NCBI GenBank assembly: GCA_028283655.1
Contig: JAPWKE010000001.1
Span: 25,082 to 89,081, forward strand
From: Acidobacteriaceae bacterium
GTDB taxonomy: Bacteria; Acidobacteriota; Terriglobia; Terriglobales; Acidobacteriaceae
Direction of reading: 5' to 3'
DNA length: 64,000 nucleotides
Shown: positions 1-12,345 of the stretch, in pieces
How the letters are laid out: the number at the start of each line of letters is the position of its first letter
How positions within the stretch are numbered: position 1 is the first letter of the stretch
Made by a program: the position numbers and the translations under genes
The notes under the pieces: generated by a model
What the model was told of the DNA's origin: nothing
Database searches by the model: none
The model's input: only the letters and a program-made list of their open reading frames with translations

Positions 1-2538
<2,538 letters not shown>

Positions 2539-2560
2539 CTCTTCGATTCAAGTAAGTGGA

Positions 2561-2592
2561 AAGGCCTCGGAGTGAAATCCGGGGCCTTTTTG
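2561..2592 (+). terminator. rho-independent terminator after gyrB
   Basis: GGCCTCGG (2563-2570) pairs with CCGGGGCC (2579-2586) and is followed by TTTTT. Confidence 0.7.
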
Positions 2593-2809
2593 CTGCTTTT
2601 GGGGCGTTTTTTCGAAACCTTTTTGCGGGTTTTGAAAGCATTTTTTGCCAAAAATTGCATATATCTTGTTGCGACGGTCAAAGATCGCGGATATGCTGAC
2701 CCCATCTTTATATCAGTTTTTTGGATGCGCGGTCTTCTGTGAGGCCGCGTGTCTTTCTCTTACACAAAACAAAAACGTGTACGTCTGTTGGCTTTTCTGG
2801 GAGCTGAGA

Positions 2810-5002
2810 ATGAAGCAAGTGTCGCAGGGTCTGCGTAAGCAGATGTTGGCAGCGGTGTCTCTCACCGCAGCGGTAACTCTTTCTGGTTGTGCAATGGGGA
2901 ACCTGAACCTTTCGGGCGGTGCTGGAGGGGCGCAGAGCGTTGCGGTCAAGATGACCGGCCTCGTTCACGGTGGCCAGCAGCCCGTTTCCGGCTCAACGAT
3001 CGCGTTGATGACCATGGGAGCGACTGGATATGGCTCCGCAGGCAGCAACCTGATCCCGACGGGATCGTACGCCGTGGGTGGAGCCCCGGGCTGCTCGAGC
3101 GGTTCCTGCCAGACGACCGTTGTGACGGACGCAGGCGGCAACTTCACCATTACCGGGGACTACACCTGCCCGACGGCGAACCCGGCGGCACAGGTTTATC
3201 TGACCGCGACGGGCGGCAACCCCGGCCTGACGACGGGAACGAATAATGCGGCGATCAAGCTGGTGGCTCCGCTGGGTGCCTGCAATGCGCTGAGCAGCGC
3301 GACGACGGTTGTGGTGAACGAAGTGACGACGGCGGCGATGGCGTTTGCTGTGGGTCAGTTCTTCGGGACGCCGAGCAATGTGGACAACTTCGGCTCGACG
3401 GCGACGGCGCAGTCCGTGCTTGGCCTGAGCAACGCGATCGCGACGTACGGCAACCTTGTGGACCCGGCGAGCGGTATGCCGCTGGGTAGCAAGACGCTGA
3501 CTTCGGCGACTGGAACTGTCGTCGTTACGCCGGAGCAGGCCAAGCTGGCCTTGATTGCTGACATCCTGGCCGCTTGCGTGAACTCGACGGGGGTAAGCAG
3601 CTCGGAGTGCACGACCGTGTTTAGCGGTACGGCCGCCAGCGGGACGACGGTTACCGATACGCTGCAGGCTGCGGTGGAGATGAGCCTGAACCCGACGAGC
3701 ACGAACAACGGCACGTCCAGCATGGATGCGTTGTATGGCCTGGCCACGGCGACCTCGCCGTTTGTGGGCTATCGTCCGGCTTATGCGGAGCCGACGGATT
3801 GGACGCTGGGAGTTACCTACGGATCGAACAGCACGGTAAATACGTCCTACCTGATCACGAAGCCGGAGCATCTGGCGGTTGATTCGCAGGGCAATGTCTG
3901 GCTGGGCAATTATGCCGGCAGTGCGGCGACAGCAGGCAACAGCCTGACGAAGCTGAGCGGCGGAGCGAGCAGTGCTCCCGGAACCCCGCTGGCCCAGGCG
4001 CTGGTCGGTGTACAGACGGGCATTCAGTATGTGGCGATCGATCCTTCGGACAACGTCTGGTCGCCGCAGTATTACAGCGCGACCGGCACAACGGGTGGCG
4101 GAAGCTCGGTGGTGGAGTACACGCCCGCCGGTGTGACGAACACCTTCACGACAGGAGCTGCGCCTGACACGATCACCTTCGATGGCGCAGGCAATGCCTT
4201 CATTCTCGAGCCTTCCTACAAGGGCGCGGGTGAGTTGGATGAGTTGGCATACGGAGCCGCTTCGGGAGCGACGGCCAACGTAATCGCGACTGGTATCACC
4301 ACGGATTACTCGACTATCGGCATCGACAGCAACTTCACGATTTACATCAGTGGCGGTGGCTCGGCGACGACCGGTACCGGAACCTCGGGCTTCGATGGCA
4401 TCTGGGAGTTTGCCAAGACCGCTTCGACGACGACGGGCTACCCGAGCACGCCGACCGGTGCTGCTGTGGGCACGGCGCTTTCGCCGTACCAGACGGTTGC
4501 GGGTGTCACTGAACCGGAACCTCTGGCTATCGATGGCAGCAACAACGTCTGGTTTGGCAACTACGGCAAGTCGACGCTGGGTGCGGTTTCAGCCACGACG
4601 ACAGGAACGTTTCAGGCTCTGCAGGGCTCGCCGTTTACGACGACGAACCTTACGGCTCCTGAGCAGATCATCTTCGACGGCGACGGACATCTTTGGTCGA
4701 CTGAAGCGAATGCGAGCGGCAATGTGATGGAGTACACGGCGGATGGTGTTGCGATGCATCCGGTCGGGACGTCGATTGCGACCACTGGCTTTGTGCATAC
4801 TTATGCTGAGCCCTATGGGATCGCTATCGATCCTTCGGGCAATGTCTGGGTGGGCAACTATGCCACCGGCGCTGCTGCCACGGCGAGCGTGCTGGGCTTT
4901 GTGACGGAGATTGTCGGTGCTGCGGCCCCGACGATTACGCCGCTTGCTGCTCAACTGCCAACCACAGCGGGTGGAACCAACCGCACGGCAACTCGCCCGT
5001 AA
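2810..5002 (+). CDS. lipoprotein with beta-propeller (NHL-like) repeats
   Basis: Track ORF 2645..5002, trimmed to ATG 2810 (GGGAG at 2799-2803). This gives MKQVSQGLRKQMLAAVSLTAAVTLSGC, a signal peptide plus lipobox. The body has repeated GNVW(V/L/F)GNY blades. Paralog of 10288..12345. Confidence 0.85.
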   Translation: MKQVSQGLRKQMLAAVSLTAAVTLSGCAMGNLNLSGGAGGAQSVAVKMTGLVHGGQQPVSGSTIALMTMGATGYGSAGSNLIPTGSYAVGGAPGCSSGSCQTTVVTDAGGNFTITGDYTCPTANPAAQVYLTATGGNPGLTTGTNNAAIKLVAPLGACNALSSATTVVVNEVTTAAMAFAVGQFFGTPSNVDNFGSTATAQSVLGLSNAIATYGNLVDPASGMPLGSKTLTSATGTVVVTPEQAKLALIADILAACVNSTGVSSSECTTVFSGTAASGTTVTDTLQAAVEMSLNPTSTNNGTSSMDALYGLATATSPFVGYRPAYAEPTDWTLGVTYGSNSTVNTSYLITKPEHLAVDSQGNVWLGNYAGSAATAGNSLTKLSGGASSAPGTPLAQALVGVQTGIQYVAIDPSDNVWSPQYYSATGTTGGGSSVVEYTPAGVTNTFTTGAAPDTITFDGAGNAFILEPSYKGAGELDELAYGAASGATANVIATGITTDYSTIGIDSNFTIYISGGGSATTGTGTSGFDGIWEFAKTASTTTGYPSTPTGAAVGTALSPYQTVAGVTEPEPLAIDGSNNVWFGNYGKSTLGAVSATTTGTFQALQGSPFTTTNLTAPEQIIFDGDGHLWSTEANASGNVMEYTADGVAMHPVGTSIATTGFVHTYAEPYGIAIDPSGNVWVGNYATGAAATASVLGFVTEIVGAAAPTITPLAAQLPTTAGGTNRTATRP

Positions 5003-5158: not shown

Positions 5159-7279
5159 ATGAGTTCTTTGCTTTCCTGGCGTTCCTGTTCTGTTGCTTTT
5201 AAACGGCTCCGCGTTCACTTCGTGAAGCCTGTTTCTTTTTCCCTGCTGGGCGTTGGTGTTCTGCTGCCGCTCAGCGCATTTGCTGCGGCCCCGCAAGCGA
5301 CGACAGCAAAGACGCCTACCGCTGCGGGAGGTACGCAAACTGCTGGAGCGGAGTCCGGTTCTGCGGCCTCTCATGCGAGCCCGGCTTCTGCAAACCTGCA
5401 GCAGCGAATCGCTCAACTGCCTCCGCTGAGTAATACGGGCGTGGAGGTAAAGCAGCAGGGGGATCTCGTACGCAATCATCTGGGCGATGTGCTGCGCTTC
5501 TATCGCAGCAGCACGACGAGCGTTCAGAAGACAGGTGAGCCGAGCGACATTCTCTACCAGGACCAGATGCGCTCGCAGGTGACGAGCGTCGCGCAGTTTG
5601 CTTTTGAGGCGACGCGGAATGTAGCAGCACTGCTGTCGCACGTTAGCGGCGATGATGCCACGTTGCTGAAAGCCGGAGCCAGCGAGACGAAGGACTCCGG
5701 GGATGCTGCACGGATGACGCAGGCGAAGGTGCATGCGCAGGAGCGCATGGCGACGTTGCAGCAGCAGAAGCTGGCGCTCGCAGCGCAACTCGATCATGCT
5801 ACGGCGAAGACCCGTCCCGAACTGCTGCAGCAACAGGAGCAGGTGGAAGGCGGGTTGGAGCTGGCGCAGGCCACGTATGACGCGCTGAACCGCATTACAC
5901 GTTTTTCGAGTGCGCAGAGCGGGCACTCGGGGTTGATGGGCGATATTGATCACCTGGAGGCTTCGGCGCCGGAGCTCTCGTCTGACTCGGTGGGGAAGAC
6001 GGTTTCGACGGCCCCGGTTAACAGTCTGGCGGAGGCGCAACATGCTGGTCTGGTGACGCAGGCGAGTGCGTTGTTCGATCTGCTGTCCACGCGGCGCACC
6101 ATCGACGAACAGCTTGCCACGCTTGAACAGTTGCAGAAGCAGGTGCAGGCGTTGCGCACGCCGTTTCTGAAGGTGCTGCGCAGCACGATGAGCCAGGGCG
6201 AGAAGCTGACGCAGCAGAATGTCGATCTGAAGGCAACGCCGACTTCTGACGCGCAGGACCTTACGAGCACGCGCAAGCAATTCGACCAACTGACGAACAC
6301 GTTCCGCGTGATGGCGGATGCGACCTTCCCACTTTCGCAGGAGTCGCTGATGCTGGATTCGACGCGTGGGACGCTGACTGGCTGGCGGGTCGCGGTGGAT
6401 ACGGAGTACCGCAGTATTTTGCGGTCGCTGCTACTGCGCGTTGGGTCTATTGCGCTGGCCCTGATTCTGCTGGCGGTGATTGGGCACTTCTGGAACCACG
6501 CGACGCTGAAGTATGTGACGGACCTGCGCCGTCGTCGTCAGTTGCTGGTGGTGCGGCGGATGGTGCTTGGTTTTGCGGGAGGCATTGTTCTGCTCTTTGG
6601 CTTCATCACGCAGTTCAGTTCGCTGGCGACGTTTGCCGGTTTCATCTCGGCGGGCATTGCTGTTGGCCTGCAAACAATTCTGCTCTCGGTGGCGGCGTAC
6701 TTCTTCATCGTTGGACGCTATGGCGTGCGCGTGGGGGACCGCATCACGGTGGCCGGTGTTACCGGAACGGTAATCGAGGTGGGGATCGCTCGCTTCTACA
6801 TGATGGAGTTGGTGGGGACGGGAACGGAGTTGCACTCGACGGGACGCGTGGCTGTGTTTGCGAACTCCGTGCTCTTTCAGACAGGAACGCCGCTCTACAA
6901 GCAGCTTCCGGGAACAGAGTATGCGTGGCATGAGCTGACGGCAAAGCTGAAGCCGGATGCCGATGCGGACGCGGTGCTGAAGCATCTTTCGGCGATTGTC
7001 GAGAACGTCTACAACGGCTATAAGTCGGTGATCGACGCGCAGCAGAGGCAGATTGAGGCGTGGGCCGGGACGGCTGTCGATCCGCCTCGCATTGACTCGC
7101 ATATTCGCCTGATGGACGACGGCCTGCAGGTTGCGTTGCTGTTCCCGGTGCAGATTGCCGATGCCGCCGAGGCGGATGCGGCGATTGCTTCGGTGATTCT
7201 GAGCGAGTGGAAAGACGAAGGAGTGTTGCGTACGGGGCTGTCTGCTACGCCGGTGATCAAGGCCGCAGTAAAGAGCTAG
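5159..7279 (+). CDS. mechanosensitive ion channel (MscS family) with long coiled-coil N-terminal domain
   Basis: The C-terminal half has TM helices followed by GVRVGDRITVAGVTGTVIEVGIARFYMMEL, an MscS beta-domain signature. The N-terminal half is Q/A/L-rich. The start is uncertain: the track ORF opens at GTG 5069 and I chose ATG 5159. Confidence 0.85.
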   Translation: MSSLLSWRSCSVAFKRLRVHFVKPVSFSLLGVGVLLPLSAFAAAPQATTAKTPTAAGGTQTAGAESGSAASHASPASANLQQRIAQLPPLSNTGVEVKQQGDLVRNHLGDVLRFYRSSTTSVQKTGEPSDILYQDQMRSQVTSVAQFAFEATRNVAALLSHVSGDDATLLKAGASETKDSGDAARMTQAKVHAQERMATLQQQKLALAAQLDHATAKTRPELLQQQEQVEGGLELAQATYDALNRITRFSSAQSGHSGLMGDIDHLEASAPELSSDSVGKTVSTAPVNSLAEAQHAGLVTQASALFDLLSTRRTIDEQLATLEQLQKQVQALRTPFLKVLRSTMSQGEKLTQQNVDLKATPTSDAQDLTSTRKQFDQLTNTFRVMADATFPLSQESLMLDSTRGTLTGWRVAVDTEYRSILRSLLLRVGSIALALILLAVIGHFWNHATLKYVTDLRRRRQLLVVRRMVLGFAGGIVLLFGFITQFSSLATFAGFISAGIAVGLQTILLSVAAYFFIVGRYGVRVGDRITVAGVTGTVIEVGIARFYMMELVGTGTELHSTGRVAVFANSVLFQTGTPLYKQLPGTEYAWHELTAKLKPDADADAVLKHLSAIVENVYNGYKSVIDAQQRQIEAWAGTAVDPPRIDSHIRLMDDGLQVALLFPVQIADAAEADAAIASVILSEWKDEGVLRTGLSATPVIKAAVKS

Positions 7280-7385
7280 GCGGCACAGACAGTGTCGTTT
7301 CAGCGTAAAGATAAGGGGAGGAGCGCCCATACTGTCCTCAGGAGACGCACCCTCGCTCACTCCCCAACCCTTATGACGGGGGATG

Positions 7386-7414
7386 TTGAATGTGGTTTAC
7401 GAGTCAGGTGTAAT
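7386..7414 (+). promoter_or_regulatory. candidate sigma70-type promoter (TTGAAT-N17-TGTAAT)
   Basis: TTGAAT at 7386-7391, a 17-nt spacer, then TGTAAT at 7409-7414. It lies about 64 nt upstream of the micro-ORF ATG. Confidence 0.35.
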
Positions 7415-7477
7415 GTTTTTTCTCTGCGTGCGTTTTCCTTGTAGAACGGCTTCTGCCGTGAGCGAAAGGAGATTGCC

Positions 7478-7549
7478 ATGACGCCGAAGTGCAACTGCCC
7501 CGAGTGTGAGTGCGTGGAATGCCGCTGCATCGAATGCCCTTGCTGCTAG
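7478..7549 (+). CDS. 23-aa cysteine-rich micro-protein MTPKCNCPECECVECRCIECPCC (metallothionein-like, or a polycysteine leader)
   Basis: AAGGAG at 7466-7471 sits 6 nt before ATG 7478, and the stop TAG is at 7547-7549. Nine Cys are arranged with (CxCxx) periodicity, and 8 of the 9 Cys codons are TGC. The ORF is too short to appear in the ORF track. Confidence 0.55.
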   Translation: MTPKCNCPECECVECRCIECPCC

Positions 7550-7565
7550 CTCCAATGAGAAGATG

Positions 7566-7603
7566 CGCTGGCGTACTCGAGTGCGCCAGCGTTTGAGGTT
7601 TTG
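7566..7603 (+). terminator. hairpin plus T-rich tail between micro-ORF and sigma gene (terminator/attenuator)
   Basis: CGCTGGCGTAC (7566-7576) pairs with GTGCGCCAGCG (7581-7591). It is followed by TTTGAGGTTTTG. The GAGG within that tail may also serve as the SD for ATG 7609. Confidence 0.5.
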
Positions 7604-7608
7604 TCACC

Positions 7609-8172
7609 ATGCCCCCAAGCGCGCTGGAAACGCTTCTGGAACGGCGAGAGCGTTTTCTTGGCTTTATCGCTCGCCGCGTCTCGAACCACGAACTTGCCGA
7701 AGATATTCTGCAGGCGGCGTACATGCGGGCGCTGGAGAAGGCGCCTACTGGTACGGACCAGGAGTCGATTGTGGCCTGGTTCTTCAGCGTTCTGCGGCAC
7801 GCGATTATCGATCACTATCGTCGGCGGCATACAGAAGCTGCGGCGATGGAGCGGTTGCTGTTCGAACTTGGGCCGGATGAGCCTGTGGTTGCGGACAGTT
7901 CGGCACGGAGGTTTGTGTGCGGATGCATCGAGCGGGTTCTGCCGTCCCTGCGGCCAGCGTATGCCGAGCTTTTGAGCGAGGTGGATCTGGCGGAGACGCC
8001 CCTGACGCAGTTTGCGCTGGCGCATAACCTGACCCCGGGAAACGCCGCTGTGCGAGCGCATCGCGCACGTGCGGCGCTGCGGAGAGAGCTGGCAAAGACG
8101 TGTGGATCGTGTTCGATACACGCGTGTCTGGATTGCGTGTGCAAGCAGCCTCTGCCGGCGCTGGGTGTCTAA
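7609..8172 (+). CDS. ECF sigma factor with Cys-rich C-terminal extension (CorE-like)
   Basis: Sigma70 region 2 (DILQAAYMRALEK..WFFSVLRHAIIDHYRRR) and region 4 (YAELLSEVDLAETPLTQFALAHNLTPGNAAVRAHRARAALRREL) are present. There is a linker CxC (FVCGCIE) and a terminal CGSCSIHACLDCVC. No anti-sigma gene is adjacent. Confidence 0.85.
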   Translation: MPPSALETLLERRERFLGFIARRVSNHELAEDILQAAYMRALEKAPTGTDQESIVAWFFSVLRHAIIDHYRRRHTEAAAMERLLFELGPDEPVVADSSARRFVCGCIERVLPSLRPAYAELLSEVDLAETPLTQFALAHNLTPGNAAVRAHRARAALRRELAKTCGSCSIHACLDCVCKQPLPALGV

Positions 8173-8184
8173 TTTGAAGAACGG

Positions 8185-9591
8185 ATGAGAATGAAGAAGC
8201 AGTATGTTGTTCTGGCAGGCGTTTGTGTCGTTAGCTCGCTGGCGACGCTGCACGCACAGTCATCACAGGTGATGACGGCGCATACGTTGCGCGAAGCGGT
8301 GTTGCAGCATGGGTCTTCGGGCACGAGCGTAGAGCCGCCGTCTACCCCTGTACCGATGTGGATGGGAGTGCGCTCCGGCTGGACGCTGATGCTGCATGGC
8401 AACGCGTTTGTGGCGAACGATCAGCAGCAGGCCGAGAGTCATCGCGGCCGTGATGGATGGTTTTCGACCAACTGGATTATGCCTATGGCGCAGCGGAAGC
8501 TTGGGCCGGGGCAGTTGACGGTGCGGGCGATGTTTTCGGCGGAGCCGGGGACGATGCAGCAGCGGGCCTATCCTGAGATCTTTCAGCAGGGCGAGACGGC
8601 GTATGGCAATCCGATCGTGGATGGGCAGCATCCGCACGCGTTCTTTATGGAAGTGGGCGCGCTCTACGACATCAAGATGGGCAAGGATGCTTTGCTGAGC
8701 TTTTACGTCGCGCCGGTGGGCGATCCGGCGATTGGGCCGACGGCGTATCCGCACCGTCAGTCGGCGAGCGAAGACCCGATTGCGGCTCTGGGACATCACC
8801 AGGAAGACTCGACGCACATTGCGTACAACGTGCTGACCGGGGGGCTGACGTACAAGTGGGTGCGCGCGGAGCTCTCGGGGTTTCATGGCGGTGAGCCGGG
8901 GGAGGCGCACTGGCACTTCGAGTCTTCGGCGAACGGGCTGGCGGTGGACTCGGTTTCGACGCGGCTGACGGTGGCTCCGACGGCGGATTGGACGGCGCAG
9001 TACTCGTTCGCGCACATTGCGTCGCCGGAGGCGTTGTATCCGCAGGAAGACCAGCAGAGGCAGACGGCGAGCGTGATGTATCACCATACGTTCCGCACGG
9101 AGGCTGCGCCGAGGATGGGCGGCGCGTCGATGCAAGGGACGTCGATGCAAAGTTCGATGGCAGGGATGGATATGAGCGGAGCGTCGATGAAGATGACGCC
9201 GCAGCCGCTGGAAGACCTGTCGATGACGGCGGTGTGGGGCCGGACACGGTCGCTGGACGCGGACGCGAGCAAGGAGAACAGCTATCTGCTGGAGGCGCTG
9301 TATCGCTTCCGCGGCCGGAACTACGTGTGGACACGCATGGAGAATGCGGGACGTTCGAACGAGTTGCTACTTGCGCCCGGAACGCCGCTGCCTGTGGGGT
9401 TCCACGAAAGCCCGATCGGGCATGTGGCCGCGTTCAGCTTCGGATATGACCGCGATTATGCGCTTGGGAAGCACATTCTGGCGGCGCCGGGAGCGCAGTT
9501 CACGGTGTATCGGACGCCGTCTCTGCTGACGTCGACGTATGGTTCTACGCCGACGGCAGAGGTGTTCTTTGTAAGGTTTCGGGTACGGTAG
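8185..9591 (+). CDS. secreted Met/His-rich protein, probable outer-membrane beta-barrel
   Basis: Signal peptide MRMKKQYVVLAGVCVVSSLATLHAQS. A Met-rich insert MGGASMQGTSMQSSMAGMDMSGASMKM is encoded at nt 9115-9195. His clusters include HPHAFF, GHHQEDSTH, HWHFE and MYHHTF. The rest has an alternating beta-strand-like sequence. The gene starts 12 nt after the sigma gene stop. Confidence 0.8.
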   Translation: MRMKKQYVVLAGVCVVSSLATLHAQSSQVMTAHTLREAVLQHGSSGTSVEPPSTPVPMWMGVRSGWTLMLHGNAFVANDQQQAESHRGRDGWFSTNWIMPMAQRKLGPGQLTVRAMFSAEPGTMQQRAYPEIFQQGETAYGNPIVDGQHPHAFFMEVGALYDIKMGKDALLSFYVAPVGDPAIGPTAYPHRQSASEDPIAALGHHQEDSTHIAYNVLTGGLTYKWVRAELSGFHGGEPGEAHWHFESSANGLAVDSVSTRLTVAPTADWTAQYSFAHIASPEALYPQEDQQRQTASVMYHHTFRTEAAPRMGGASMQGTSMQSSMAGMDMSGASMKMTPQPLEDLSMTAVWGRTRSLDADASKENSYLLEALYRFRGRNYVWTRMENAGRSNELLLAPGTPLPVGFHESPIGHVAAFSFGYDRDYALGKHILAAPGAQFTVYRTPSLLTSTYGSTPTAEVFFVRFRVR

Positions 9592-10287: not shown

Positions 10288-12345
10288 TTAGGGGCGAACG
10301 CCGAAGTTGCCGACGGCGAGAGGAGCGTTCGTCGGAGCTGCAATGCCGAAAACCTGGACCACAGGGTATGTTGCGGTCGAGGAGGCATTGATCAGCCACG
10401 TAGCACCGGCTTGATCGATTGCCACTGAAGGCATCGAGGTCGCGGTGGTGGCGGTTGCCAGAACGGACGTGCCGCTCGCGTCGACGGGCATCAGGCCATC
10501 GCCAGAACCGCGGCTCGCGAGCGAACCCGTGGTGGCGAGGTACTTCATGGCAGTGCTGCTTGCATCGACGACGAAGAGTGAGGAGTAACCCGCGGTGCTG
10601 GCCGCGGGGACAAGGCCGTGGTTGACGCCGTCCATGGCGATTGTGCTGCCGTAGAGGTTTACCTGTGCGGTTGTTCCACCAGTTGCTGCGGTCGGAATCG
10701 GGAAGTAGAACTTCGTGGTGCAGCCGGAGGTATCAGCCGCTCCATAGCATACGCCGCCGTAGCCACCGCTCTGGCCGGAGAGGCCTGCGATGACATTCCA
10801 GATGCGGGCGGCGCTGCTATCGAAGGTTGTTCCGCCAGAACGGTAGTTGCTGGTTCCGGACGATACCGTAACAGCGCCGGTGTAGGGCGATGCAAAGTTG
10901 AAGTAAGACGAAACGCCCGTGCCGCCTGCAACAATGTTGCTCGTGCGCGGGTCTACGGCAAGGTACTTGGCGCCGTAGTTCGTTGTAGCCGTTGGGAACG
11001 TGCTTGTTCCGGCGTAGGTGGTGTCTGCCGTCGTCGTGCCTACGGGGATCCGACCGATGTAGCTGGTACCTGCTGTGGAGGCGTAGGTGCTGAACCAGAC
11101 GTTGTTGCTGGGGTCAATGCTTACGGCATAGGCTGCGTCCGAAACTGCGACTGCCGTTGCGGTGGCTGTCGTGATGGTCGCGGGAACGGCCACGCCTACC
11201 GTTGTCGAGGTGCTGGGGGTGTACTTCCAGATCTGTCCTGCGGTATCAGCCAGCCATACGTTGGCGGGAGAGGCGTTATCGATAGCGAGACCTGCACCTG
11301 CAGTACCCTGCAGCGCCGTGGTTCCCCAGCCGCCGTTGGGCGAGAGGAGAGCACCTGCGGGCGAGAGCTCTGCCAGAGCGGCGTAAGGCATGCCGCCGAC
11401 CCAGACGTTGCCGCTTGCATCGACCTTGACGTCGTTCGGCTCGTAAGCCGGGGTGGTGCCGTTGGTCTCATAGCCAACGCTGTACTGAATGGCAACGCTC
11501 ACGTCGTGAGGTGCGGCGCTCAGCGTCGGGGTATAGAAGTTCGTGTTGGCCGTCGCGTTGTTGAAGACGTTCGTGACGTTCAGCATCGGGTAGAGCGCCC
11601 ATTCGAGCGCGATCTGCCAGGTGTTGGCTGGCGTAATGGAGTTCGGGTAAGCGATGGCGACGCTCGTGCAGCCTGCCGTGCTCATGCCTGCCGAGTTGAC
11701 GCAGGCGGAAAGCGAGTTCCCCAGCGAGTTGATCAACGTGTTCGGAACGTGTCCGTTGCCGCCAGCGGTTGTTGTATTCGCTGCCGTGCCTTGCATCGGA
11801 ACCAGAGCCAGTGCGTTCTGCATGGCGTTCTGCAGGCCCAGAGCGTTGGTGCTCGATGTGCCAATGTTGACCGAAGAGCCGTCTACTGTTGCAAAGCCGG
11901 AAAGTGCTTCCGCAGCTGCGATGGTCGAGATCTCGTCAATGACGACCGTTGTGCTGGAGGTGATGCTGGAGCAGGTGCCGAGTGCTTCCACGAGAATGTT
12001 GGTGGGAACGACGCTTCCCAGACCGGGATCGCCACCCTGCGCGACCATGTAGAGCTGGTCGGGGTCGGTGCAGGTGGTGCTGTTGCGGGTGATCGAAAAG
12101 TTGCCACCACTGTCCGTGGTCGCTGTTCCAAGCACGGTCGGTGCGCTGCCGTAGCCCGTGGTGCCGGCCTTGTAGAGGGTGATGGCCGCACCGGAGATCG
12201 GCTGGTGGCCGCCCATGGCCTTACCCTGTACTGCTGCAACGAGTTGGGAAGGGGACGTGGCAGTACCCTGCAGGCCGCAGCCGGTAAGCAGAGCGAGAGT
12301 GCCGACGGAGGAGAGAGCTGCAGCGAAGCGAAGTGTTCGTGTCAT
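10288..12345 (-). CDS. lipoprotein with beta-propeller (NHL-like) repeats, paralog of 2810..5002
   Basis: MTRTLRFAAALSSVGTLALLTGC contains a lipobox. The N-terminal module GGHQPISGAAITLYKAGTTGYGSA..GGNFSIT..GGDPGLG matches the same module in 2810..5002. GNVWVGG and NNVWFSTY blades are present. Confidence 0.85.
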   Translation of the reverse strand: MTRTLRFAAALSSVGTLALLTGCGLQGTATSPSQLVAAVQGKAMGGHQPISGAAITLYKAGTTGYGSAPTVLGTATTDSGGNFSITRNSTTCTDPDQLYMVAQGGDPGLGSVVPTNILVEALGTCSSITSSTTVVIDEISTIAAAEALSGFATVDGSSVNIGTSSTNALGLQNAMQNALALVPMQGTAANTTTAGGNGHVPNTLINSLGNSLSACVNSAGMSTAGCTSVAIAYPNSITPANTWQIALEWALYPMLNVTNVFNNATANTNFYTPTLSAAPHDVSVAIQYSVGYETNGTTPAYEPNDVKVDASGNVWVGGMPYAALAELSPAGALLSPNGGWGTTALQGTAGAGLAIDNASPANVWLADTAGQIWKYTPSTSTTVGVAVPATITTATATAVAVSDAAYAVSIDPSNNVWFSTYASTAGTSYIGRIPVGTTTADTTYAGTSTFPTATTNYGAKYLAVDPRTSNIVAGGTGVSSYFNFASPYTGAVTVSSGTSNYRSGGTTFDSSAARIWNVIAGLSGQSGGYGGVCYGAADTSGCTTKFYFPIPTAATGGTTAQVNLYGSTIAMDGVNHGLVPAASTAGYSSLFVVDASSTAMKYLATTGSLASRGSGDGLMPVDASGTSVLATATTATSMPSVAIDQAGATWLINASSTATYPVVQVFGIAAPTNAPLAVGNFGVRP

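Follow-up and report, generated by a model that had tools for sequence, protein, structure and literature searches.

A micro open reading frame (micro-ORF) of 23 codons, located immediately upstream of a gene for a CorE-like sigma factor, is very probably a real, selected gene in a member of the Acidobacteriaceae. It lies within a 64,000-nucleotide stretch of DNA, hereafter called the window (contig JAPWKE010000001.1, positions 25,082–89,081 of the forward strand, assembly GCA_028283655.1, Acidobacteriaceae bacterium). On balance, we favor the view that its product is a minimal metallothionein, i.e., a cytoplasmic thiolate peptide of 23 residues induced by the sigma factor whose gene it precedes. 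The evidence comes from the composition of the peptide, its conservation and codon-level selection in related loci, and a promoter motif shared with other metal-related genes.

Sequence of the Micro-ORF

The micro-ORF (positions 7478–7549, forward strand) starts with ATG at 7478 and comprises 23 codons followed by the stop codon TAG at 7547–7549. The codons are ATG ACG CCG AAG TGC AAC TGC CCC GAG TGT GAG TGC GTG GAA TGC CGC TGC ATC GAA TGC CCT TGC TGC TAG, and the encoded peptide, MTPKCNCPECECVECRCIECPCC, has a mass of about 2.5 kDa. Nine of its 23 residues (39%) are cysteines, located at positions 5, 7, 10, 12, 15, 17, 20, 22, and 23 and arranged as (CxCxx) three times and then CxCC; eight of the Cys codons are TGC and one is TGT. 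Aromatic residues and His are absent from the peptide. A Shine-Dalgarno (SD) sequence, AAGGAG, is located at 7466–7471 on the same strand, 6 nt upstream of the ATG. An earlier note, made from the sequence alone, had described the ORF, the position of AAGGAG, the nine-Cys pattern, and the eight TGC codons, and all of these were reproduced exactly. Tandem Repeats Finder gave no DNA-level repeat within the micro-ORF; thus, the (xECxC)3 periodicity exists at the peptide level only.

The stretch of nine Cys within 19 stop-free residues is the six-frame maximum of the window, and in random windows of the same length, generated with a first-order Markov model (n = 30), the maximum was just 5–7 Cys. 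A search of both strands for ORFs of 15–90 codons with at least six Cys and at least 18% Cys, thresholds that were also applied to other loci, returned the micro-ORF as the only one in the 64 kb. Public gene calls on contigs with the identical sigma gene omit the micro-ORF, and an Rfam scan of positions 6800–8400 with E-values up to 1 gave zero matches.

Conservation and Selection in Related Loci

A genome scan with the sigma factor protein recovered eight Acidobacteriaceae/Terriglobales loci, among them those of Bryocella elongata DSM 22489 and of a Granulicella metagenome-assembled genome (MAG). A metagenome scan with the sigma factor alignment provided 80 additional loci, and look-ups provided three more. 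The close, or core, loci were defined as L001–L031, in which the sigma factor is at least 48% identical to that of the window, together with L089, L092, and L093 from the look-ups. A Cys-rich ORF of 20–33 codons was located directly upstream of the sigma gene in all 34 of these close loci, one of them frameshifted. An SD match of 5–7 nt preceded the micro-ORF in 26 of the 26 core loci scored. The earlier note had suggested a search for such micro-ORFs upstream of CorE-like sigma genes in other Acidobacteriota, together with a test for codon-level conservation, and both gave a positive result.

The family consensus is MTTKCxCPCGPECxCPxCxC..PCC, and the (xECxC)3 version in the window is a divergent member of the family. 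Accordingly, the strict (CxCxx)3 periodicity emphasized in the earlier note holds for the window peptide and is not a trait of the family. Isolates carry the versions MKNTCTCEDCTCVVCHCTACSCPSC (Granulicella cerasi) and MKNHCACSCCPECNCPECEGPGCPCC (Granulicella sp. 5B5). In the latter strain (CP046444.1), the micro-ORF occupies positions 1777–1857 of L093. The composition of 31 orthologues was 31% Cys, 15% Pro, 0.4% Phe, and 0.2% His, with no Trp or Tyr. In an alignment of 29 peptides, three columns were invariant for Cys, and Cys occupied two more in at least 90% of the sequences.

The ratio of non-synonymous to synonymous differences (pN/pS), calculated over 14 phylogenetically independent pairs, was 0.26 overall, 0.02 for the Cys codons, and 0.43 for the non-Cys codons; within 11 closer pairs, the value for the non-Cys codons was 0.27. 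The pair L025 and L029 may serve as an example: 13.5 synonymous and 2.5 non-synonymous differences separated the two ORFs, with 13 of 16 at third positions, and their 5′ untranslated regions (UTRs) were 48% identical. In the syntenic loci in general, the frame, the start codon, the SD sequence, and the Cys positions were kept, while the third codon positions and the flanks had diverged. The conservation of a reading frame in syntenic relatives was one of the points on which the earlier note had staked its proposal, and the frame is indeed conserved; therefore, the gene stands. Its translation into a peptide is predicted.

The family is nearly invisible in protein databases. A large protein database, searched with a profile headed by a 52-aa extended ORF, yielded four unnamed relatives in total, and these owed their annotation solely to spurious N-terminal extensions or to frameshifts. 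In L089, L011, L014, L017, L018, L027, and L029, the ATG within the −35 element of the promoter described below (TGTAATG) is in frame with the micro-ORF, and as a result, gene calling yields a spurious 50-aa "MF..." protein (P0001, L089 3001–3162). P0001 is the sole form in which the micro-ORF family enters public protein sets. A tblastn search of plasmids with a consensus-like peptide, carried out with the low-complexity filter on, gave no match.

A frameshift of 1 nt near the middle or the end of the ORF was observed in two members of the family, L008 (3887–3962) and P0002, where the frame runs into the downstream hairpin (..HEQLTIAGG..). L008, the frameshifted close locus, is derived from a long-read MAG, and a sequencing error is therefore likely; alternatively, the frameshift may represent natural decay.

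The CorE-Like Sigma Factor

The gene downstream of the micro-ORF (7609–8172, forward strand) encodes a CorE-like sigma factor of 187 aa, of the ECF44/ECF238 type of extracytoplasmic function (ECF) sigma factors, with matches to the Pfam domains Sigma70_r2 (1e-10) and r4_2 (2e-3). Its best NCBIfam matches were SigZ models, with scores below the cut-offs. SigZ is a member of ECF238, which has absorbed the CorE-like group ECF44 (PMC7826278). CorE-like sigma factors are defined by a CxC motif located within the linker and a Cys-rich domain at the C-terminus (PMC8999054; PMC4937300), and both signatures were found in the adjacent gene product, in agreement with the earlier description of it. In the window protein and eight relatives, the C104-x-C106 motif in the sigma-2/sigma-4 linker was invariant in nine of nine sequences, as were C165, C168, H171, C173, C176, and C178 at the C-terminus. 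The activity of CorE depends on the copper redox state (PMC8999054).

No anti-sigma factor is known for CorE-like sigma factors (PMC6851896), and among the loci compared no conserved anti-sigma-like neighbor of the sigma gene was seen. Within the close clade, no gene but the micro-ORF accompanies the sigma gene in every locus, the other neighbors being variable.

A Shared Promoter Motif

An ECF-type promoter was predicted upstream of the micro-ORF at 7409–7435 on the forward strand. It consists of a −35 element TGTAATG (7409–7415), a 15-nt spacer, and a −10 element CGTTT (7431–7435). The pattern TGTAA(T/G)N-N15-CGT(C/G/T)(T/A) was present in all 30 core loci with enough upstream sequence, with N14 in one of them, and its end was located 37–49 nt from the ATG of the micro-ORF, except in L029 (22 nt). 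The family form of the motif, TGTAATG-N15-CGTCT, has the layout of an ECF promoter when read as TGTAAT-N16-CGTCT. Within the 64 kb, a single copy of the strict pattern is present, and a scan for sigma-70 promoters found no site.

The same motif was followed into more distant relatives, namely 57 loci with sigma factors 41–47% identical to that of the window. Here, it preceded Cys-rich ORFs of about 27–62 aa in several arrangements. In 22 loci, an ORF of 27–54 aa is divergent from the sigma gene (a further one, in L037, is cut by the contig end), and in ten the ORF is co-directional and upstream. Two loci have it downstream of the sigma gene with its own copy of the motif, and in one it is convergent and downstream. 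The main divergent family (42–54 aa) has ten invariant Cys and the consensus MSNVKN..CxCGxCSCGCPxNACRCQxTNCQCGC. It is unannotated and lies behind the promoter motif on the minus strand, about 130–300 nt upstream of the sigma gene, in L035, L040, L041, L043, L044, L051, L053, L064, L066, L069, L074–L076, L081, L083, and L085–L087. The family had no Pfam or NCBIfam match, and a 53-aa query of the divergent type found no word-sharing candidates in the large protein database. No homology to the micro-ORF family was detectable (hhalign probability 5.7%). The occurrence of two Cys-rich families without detectable homology indicates that the pairing of such a sigma factor with a small Cys-rich protein is recurrent.

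Where a Cys-rich ORF was absent, the motif preceded genes for P1B heavy-metal ATPases with YHS and/or heavy-metal-binding (HMBD) domains (L079, L080, and L088). It preceded the gene for a stand-alone YHS protein in L032, and in L067 it was located directly upstream of a homologue of the porin-like protein encoded by the third gene of the window locus (38% identical, E 1e-82). These motif-linked genes have parallels in the Myxococcus CorE regulon, among whose members are the P1B ATPase CopB, the multicopper oxidase CuoB, and an outer-membrane efflux protein (PMC3107203). Judging from the comparison of loci, the best explanation is that this sigma clade recognizes the motif as its promoter, and small Cys-rich proteins appear to be the most frequent target of the clade, whatever their place relative to the sigma gene. 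The micro-ORF thus probably belongs to the regulon of the sigma factor. Since the motif elsewhere drives metal genes and separate Cys-rich ORFs, the peptide would be a member of a metal-detoxification regulon and not merely a leader acting in cis.

A further copy of the motif was observed about 1.2 kb downstream on the minus strand in some of the distant loci. In L043, this copy is located at about 2702, ahead of a gene at 2054–2629 (minus strand) that is convergent with the sigma gene and encodes a secreted 191-aa protein with three repeats (weak DUF4177 and DUF1737 matches). The same layout was found in L040, L064, L066, L069, L074–L076, L081, L085, and L086, and the repeat protein is a candidate for an additional regulon member.

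Structure of the Leader and the Intercistronic Spacer

Between the predicted transcription start and the SD sequence, a small stem-loop, ACGGC-TTCT-GCCGT, is located at 7446–7459 (forward strand). In 28 of 30 loci, this position was occupied by a hairpin of variable sequence, with a mean z-score of −2.1 against shuffled sequences, and in nearly all loci the 5′ UTR is about 35–40 nt long and contains both the hairpin and the SD sequence. In L021–L025, a second small hairpin (GTCTTAAGGAGAC) lies directly downstream of the conserved one and carries the SD sequence (AAGGAG) in its loop; this second hairpin may modulate translation. Further upstream, between the gene for an MscS-like protein and the promoter of the micro-ORF, a long imperfect hairpin (GGGGAGGAGCGCCCATACTGTCCTCAGGAGACGCACCCTCGCTCACTCCCC) was observed at 7316–7372. 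It is almost identical in G. cerasi (L092, about 1655–1710), and a fragment of it, GTCCTCAGGAGACGC, is present in the upstream region of a Granulicella MAG (L004). The long hairpin may act as the upstream gene's terminator, or it may be a conserved element.

The spacer between the micro-ORF and the sigma gene contains a GC-rich hairpin (7565–7592, forward strand) with a 12-bp stem, a TCGA loop, and a T-rich tail, TTGAGGTTTTG, at 7593–7603. The stop codon of the micro-ORF is located 15 nt upstream of this 12-bp core stem, and a terminator scan flagged an overlapping stem at 7576–7597. Each of the 31 spacers folded was predicted to form a GC-rich hairpin in the interval from stop codon to sigma start, with a mean z-score of −4.0 and with unrelated sequences. 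Measured at the outermost predicted pair, the median distances are about 5 nt from the stop codon to the hairpin and about 7 nt from the hairpin to the sigma ATG. The U tract is partial in the window, and in 30 of 31 loci no more than four T were present in the 8 nt after the outermost pair. RNAalifold, applied to a MAFFT alignment of 21 spacers, gave no consensus structure because the stems share their shape and differ completely in sequence; conservation of the hairpin was assessed by the per-locus folding z-scores. The fold of the whole leader (7440–7630) was not significant (z −1.4), and the local hairpins alone stood out. The intercistronic hairpin was self-contained within the spacer, without pairing to the micro-ORF or its Cys codons. 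In G. cerasi, which is closely related to the window's organism, the spacer measures just 21 nt and contains no hairpin; therefore, the hairpin is common but dispensable. Similar hairpins were also found downstream of many monocistronic divergent Cys-rich ORFs. An SD sequence is missing from the sigma gene in 25 of 26 core loci, and the spacer leaves no room for a separate sigma gene promoter.

The Porin-Like Gene and Other Neighbors

The last gene of the operon (8185–9591, forward strand) encodes a secreted protein with a Met-rich insert, predicted to be a porin-like outer-membrane beta-barrel; it is the protein that the earlier note had mentioned as a Met-rich envelope protein. The next gene, yqeY, is convergent, which places the end of the operon at 9591. 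Searches of Pfam, NCBIfam, and PDB sequences with this protein gave zero matches, and it has more than 6000 unnamed acidobacterial homologues, including those of Granulicella isolates. The AlphaFold model, based on 34 sequences, was a beta-barrel with a mean pLDDT of 58 (70–87 in the strands) and roughly 18–20 strands according to DSSP, and Foldseek matched it to the general porins OmpK36/OmpC (E 1e-6, TM 0.4–0.5). The motifs DGQHPH, YPHRQSASEDP, and LGHHQEDSTH are invariant in the family (window 8185–9591; L067 2127–3500; L002, L004, L092, and L093). A low-complexity segment, predicted to bind metal, varies from the Met-rich insert in the window to a His-rich N-terminus in L067. The protein probably handles metal at the envelope, because its copy in L067 is located directly behind the sigma-type promoter motif.

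Two side observations concern the surroundings of the locus. In Granulicella paludicola (L094), a gene for a 118-aa protein (2074–2430) with a hydrophobic N-terminus and the motif CCKHKADACCDGPSRVCC, and not the sigma gene and micro-ORF, is located upstream of the porin-like homologue; this protein may be an alternative Cys-rich partner. In the window, the locus is flanked by genes for two paralogous, large, secreted Ser/Thr/Gly/Ala-rich proteins of 785 and 685 aa (2645–5002, forward strand; 10288–12345, minus strand), which have lipoprotein-like N-termini and common motifs such as GGNPGL...LGxC.

Proposed Function and Alternative Explanations

The proposal that the peptide is a metallothionein-like micro-protein tied to a CorE-like sigma factor, put forward in the earlier note, is supported by the conservation of the gene, by the selection acting on it, and by the signatures of the sigma factor. 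At the sequence level, the peptide has the size (<10 kDa), the Cys content, and the CxC, CC, and CxxC motifs of a metallothionein, and the window peptide is free of aromatic residues and His. CxC and CPxC spacings are typical of the metal-thiolate clusters of metallothioneins.

We infer the following scheme, in which recognition of the motif by the sigma factor, metal induction, metal binding by the peptide, and the feedback loop are all predicted steps. The micro-ORF, as the first cistron, the CorE-like sigma gene, and the gene of the porin-like outer-membrane protein would be transcribed as an operon from the promoter TGTAATG-N15-CGTTT, which would be recognized by the operon's own sigma factor. 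Excess metal (Cu, Zn, or Cd) would load the CxC motif and the Cys-rich domain of the sigma factor and thereby activate it, and the active holoenzyme would transcribe the operon in a positive autoregulatory manner. The peptide would be abundant, given its near-consensus SD sequence and a messenger RNA bracketed by 5′ and 3′ stem-loops; the sigma factor would be scarce, its gene lying behind a leaky terminator-like hairpin and lacking an SD sequence. The nine thiolates would sequester metal, thus both detoxifying it and lowering the signal that activates the sigma factor, which would amount to negative feedback. At the envelope, metal would be handled by the porin-like protein, which has invariant His motifs and a Met-rich loop. 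The Met-rich loop is a weak hint of Cu(I).

Several observations weigh against this scheme. Nineteen Cys-rich peptides (nine and ten), compared with the models of Pfam and NCBIfam at E-values up to 10, gave no hit, to Metallothio_Pro or to any other model, with one exception, and the assignment therefore rests on composition and context; the exception was one relative with a sub-threshold score of 17.5 bits (cut-off 31.8) with the plant model Metallothio_PEC (Ec metallothionein). A free peptide of 23 residues may be unstable. The −35 element TGTAAT is not of the AAC type that was sought for CorE, and the link between promoter and sigma factor is drawn from comparison of loci. Moreover, in about 16 of the 57 distant loci the available sequence shows neither a Cys-rich ORF nor the motif, in some of them because the contig is short.

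Among the alternatives, the one that survives best is a direct partnership of peptide and sigma factor. In this case the peptide, either a metal donor or acceptor or an anti-sigma-like inhibitor, would exchange metal with the sigma factor's CxC motif and Cys-rich domain and would set the threshold of sensing instead of acting as a bulk sink. The invariable linkage of the two genes in the close clade, the absence of a known anti-sigma factor for CorE-like sigma factors (PMC6851896), and the recurrence of the pairing with unrelated Cys-rich families are consistent with such a role. However, no Cys-rich ORF lies close to the sigma gene in about a third of the distant relatives, where the motif serves ATPase genes instead, which means that the peptide is not required for the sigma factor to work. 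In addition, the strong SD sequence suggests an excess of peptide, which fits a sink. We therefore consider a role confined to that of a partner unlikely.

The micro-ORF could instead be mainly a cis-acting leader, in which the progress of the ribosome over the nine Cys codons senses the supply of Cys-tRNA or thiols, and a ribosome at or just short of the stop codon controls either read-through of the hairpin or translation of the SD-less sigma gene. The close spacing of stop codon, hairpin, and SD-less sigma start and the lack of space for a separate sigma promoter would suit this arrangement, and a precedent exists in the polycysteine leaderless small ORFs of mycobacteria (Canestrari et al., bioRxiv 10.1101/834739). 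As in that system, an unannotated Cys-rich first cistron is followed by an RNA structure before the next gene. The earlier note had offered the polycysteine leader as its alternative reading, and the defining features of the mycobacterial system are not found here. The ORF is SD-led and not leaderless, its Cys codons are spaced, and the downstream gene is a metal sensor, the genes downstream not being those of Cys metabolism. Consecutive Cys codons, confined in the window to the terminal CC, are absent in many members, e.g., MKCQNCPCGDTCTCPICLCTGRR, and there are none in L021–L025 and L029. The hairpin forms no pairs with the Cys codons and is missing in G. cerasi, and purifying selection also acts on the non-Cys codons. 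A purely cis-acting function cannot account for the motif-linked Cys-rich ORFs with a divergent orientation (22 loci) or a position downstream of the sigma gene (two loci). As the main function, both this sensing and the control of read-through or sigma translation are thus improbable. A secondary coupling role in the co-directional clade is possible, since in many loci a ribosome at the stop codon would touch the first bases of the stem.

It is still less probable that the peptide serves as a sacrificial thiol, that is, as a scavenger of oxidants or electrophiles or as a cysteine store. Its very high thiol density and the dependence of CorE activity on the copper redox state (PMC8999054) would be in line with this function. 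The other genes linked to the motif, however, encode heavy-metal ATPases and YHS/HMBD proteins and not redox enzymes, and the CxC and CPxC spacing is that of metal-thiolate clusters. Finally, although the peptide is short and Cys-rich, we give hardly any credence to a precursor of a ribosomally synthesized and post-translationally modified peptide (ranthipeptide/SCIFF-like or methanobactin-like), as no maturase, radical-SAM, or MbnB/C gene was located near any locus, the sigma gene alone being conserved, and no NCBIfam match was obtained, or to a chance ORF in GC-rich DNA, which is excluded by the random-window maxima, the uniqueness in 64 kb, and the codon-level selection.

A broader version of the metallothionein proposal, which we advance tentatively and regard as rather doubtful, is that a CorE-like sigma factor and a thiolate micro-peptide form a two-part module in several soil lineages. 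In this module, the peptide would be both the main output and a feedback or threshold partner that replaces the missing anti-sigma factor by exchanging metal with the Cys-rich domain of the sigma factor. The Acidobacteriaceae form of 20–33 residues would then be the smallest class of gene-encoded metallothioneins known, and it would have gone unnoticed because the genes fall below the length limits of gene callers.

Comparison With Known Systems

The copper metallothionein of Neurospora crassa consists of 25 residues, and the beta-domain of mammalian metallothioneins contains nine Cys, forming M3Cys9 or Cu6Cys9 clusters. The window peptide resembles both in its very small size, its nine Cys, its content of 30–40% Cys in CxC, CC, and CxxC motifs, and its lack of aromatic residues and His; metal induction through a dedicated sensor, predicted here, would be a further likeness. 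In contrast to these proteins, the family of the window is bacterial, rich in Pro and Thr, and without a match to any sequence model, and its metal binding is predicted. With 20–33 residues, its members are smaller than or equal to the smallest known gene-encoded metallothionein.

Among bacterial metallothioneins, SmtA and MymT have 53–56 aa and a zinc-finger-like fold or His ligands. Like SmtA/BmtA and MymT, the peptide would be a cytosolic Cys-rich metal buffer with an adjacent metal sensor gene, following the logic of smtB-smtA. Unlike them, it is half the size, has no Metallothio_Pro match, and is accompanied by an ECF sigma factor, not by a repressor of the ArsR/SmtB type.

The sigma factor shares with CorE and CorE2 of Myxococcus xanthus (ECF44/ECF238) the CxC linker, the Cys-rich C-terminus, the lack of a known anti-sigma factor, and the placement of its gene behind what is predicted to be its own promoter, and P1B ATPases and outer-membrane proteins belong to the CorE regulon as well as to the one predicted here. 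The differences are the Cys-rich micro-protein, none of which has been reported for the CorE/CorE2 regulons or in the reviews consulted, and the −35 element TGTAAT.

The literature on CorE or ECF sigma factors with metallothionein or Cys-rich peptides, on metallothionein in Acidobacteria, and on Granulicella and metals did not describe the gene. A metal sensor with an adjacent metallothionein gene is known (SmtB-SmtA); the literature searched contained neither a pairing with a CorE-like ECF sigma factor nor peptides of such small size.

Implications

Bacterial metallothioneins are regarded as rare and limited to a few families (SmtA/BmtA, MymT, and the pseudomonad metallothioneins). If the proposed function is true, cytosolic thiolate buffering would be more widespread in soil bacteria and masked by gene-length cut-offs. 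It would be represented by the family of 20–33 residues in the Acidobacteriaceae and by at least one unrelated family of 42–54 residues behind the same motif. CorE-like sigma factors, which have been studied only in Myxococcus, gain a promoter motif and a core regulon, both predicted, in other phyla. Granulicella sp. 5B5, G. cerasi, and Bryocella elongata DSM 22489 are cultured strains that carry the locus, and its compact combination of sensor and chelator would be a module for biosensing or metal capture. Thus, the obtained results point to an overlooked family of very small bacterial peptides with a predicted capacity for metal binding.

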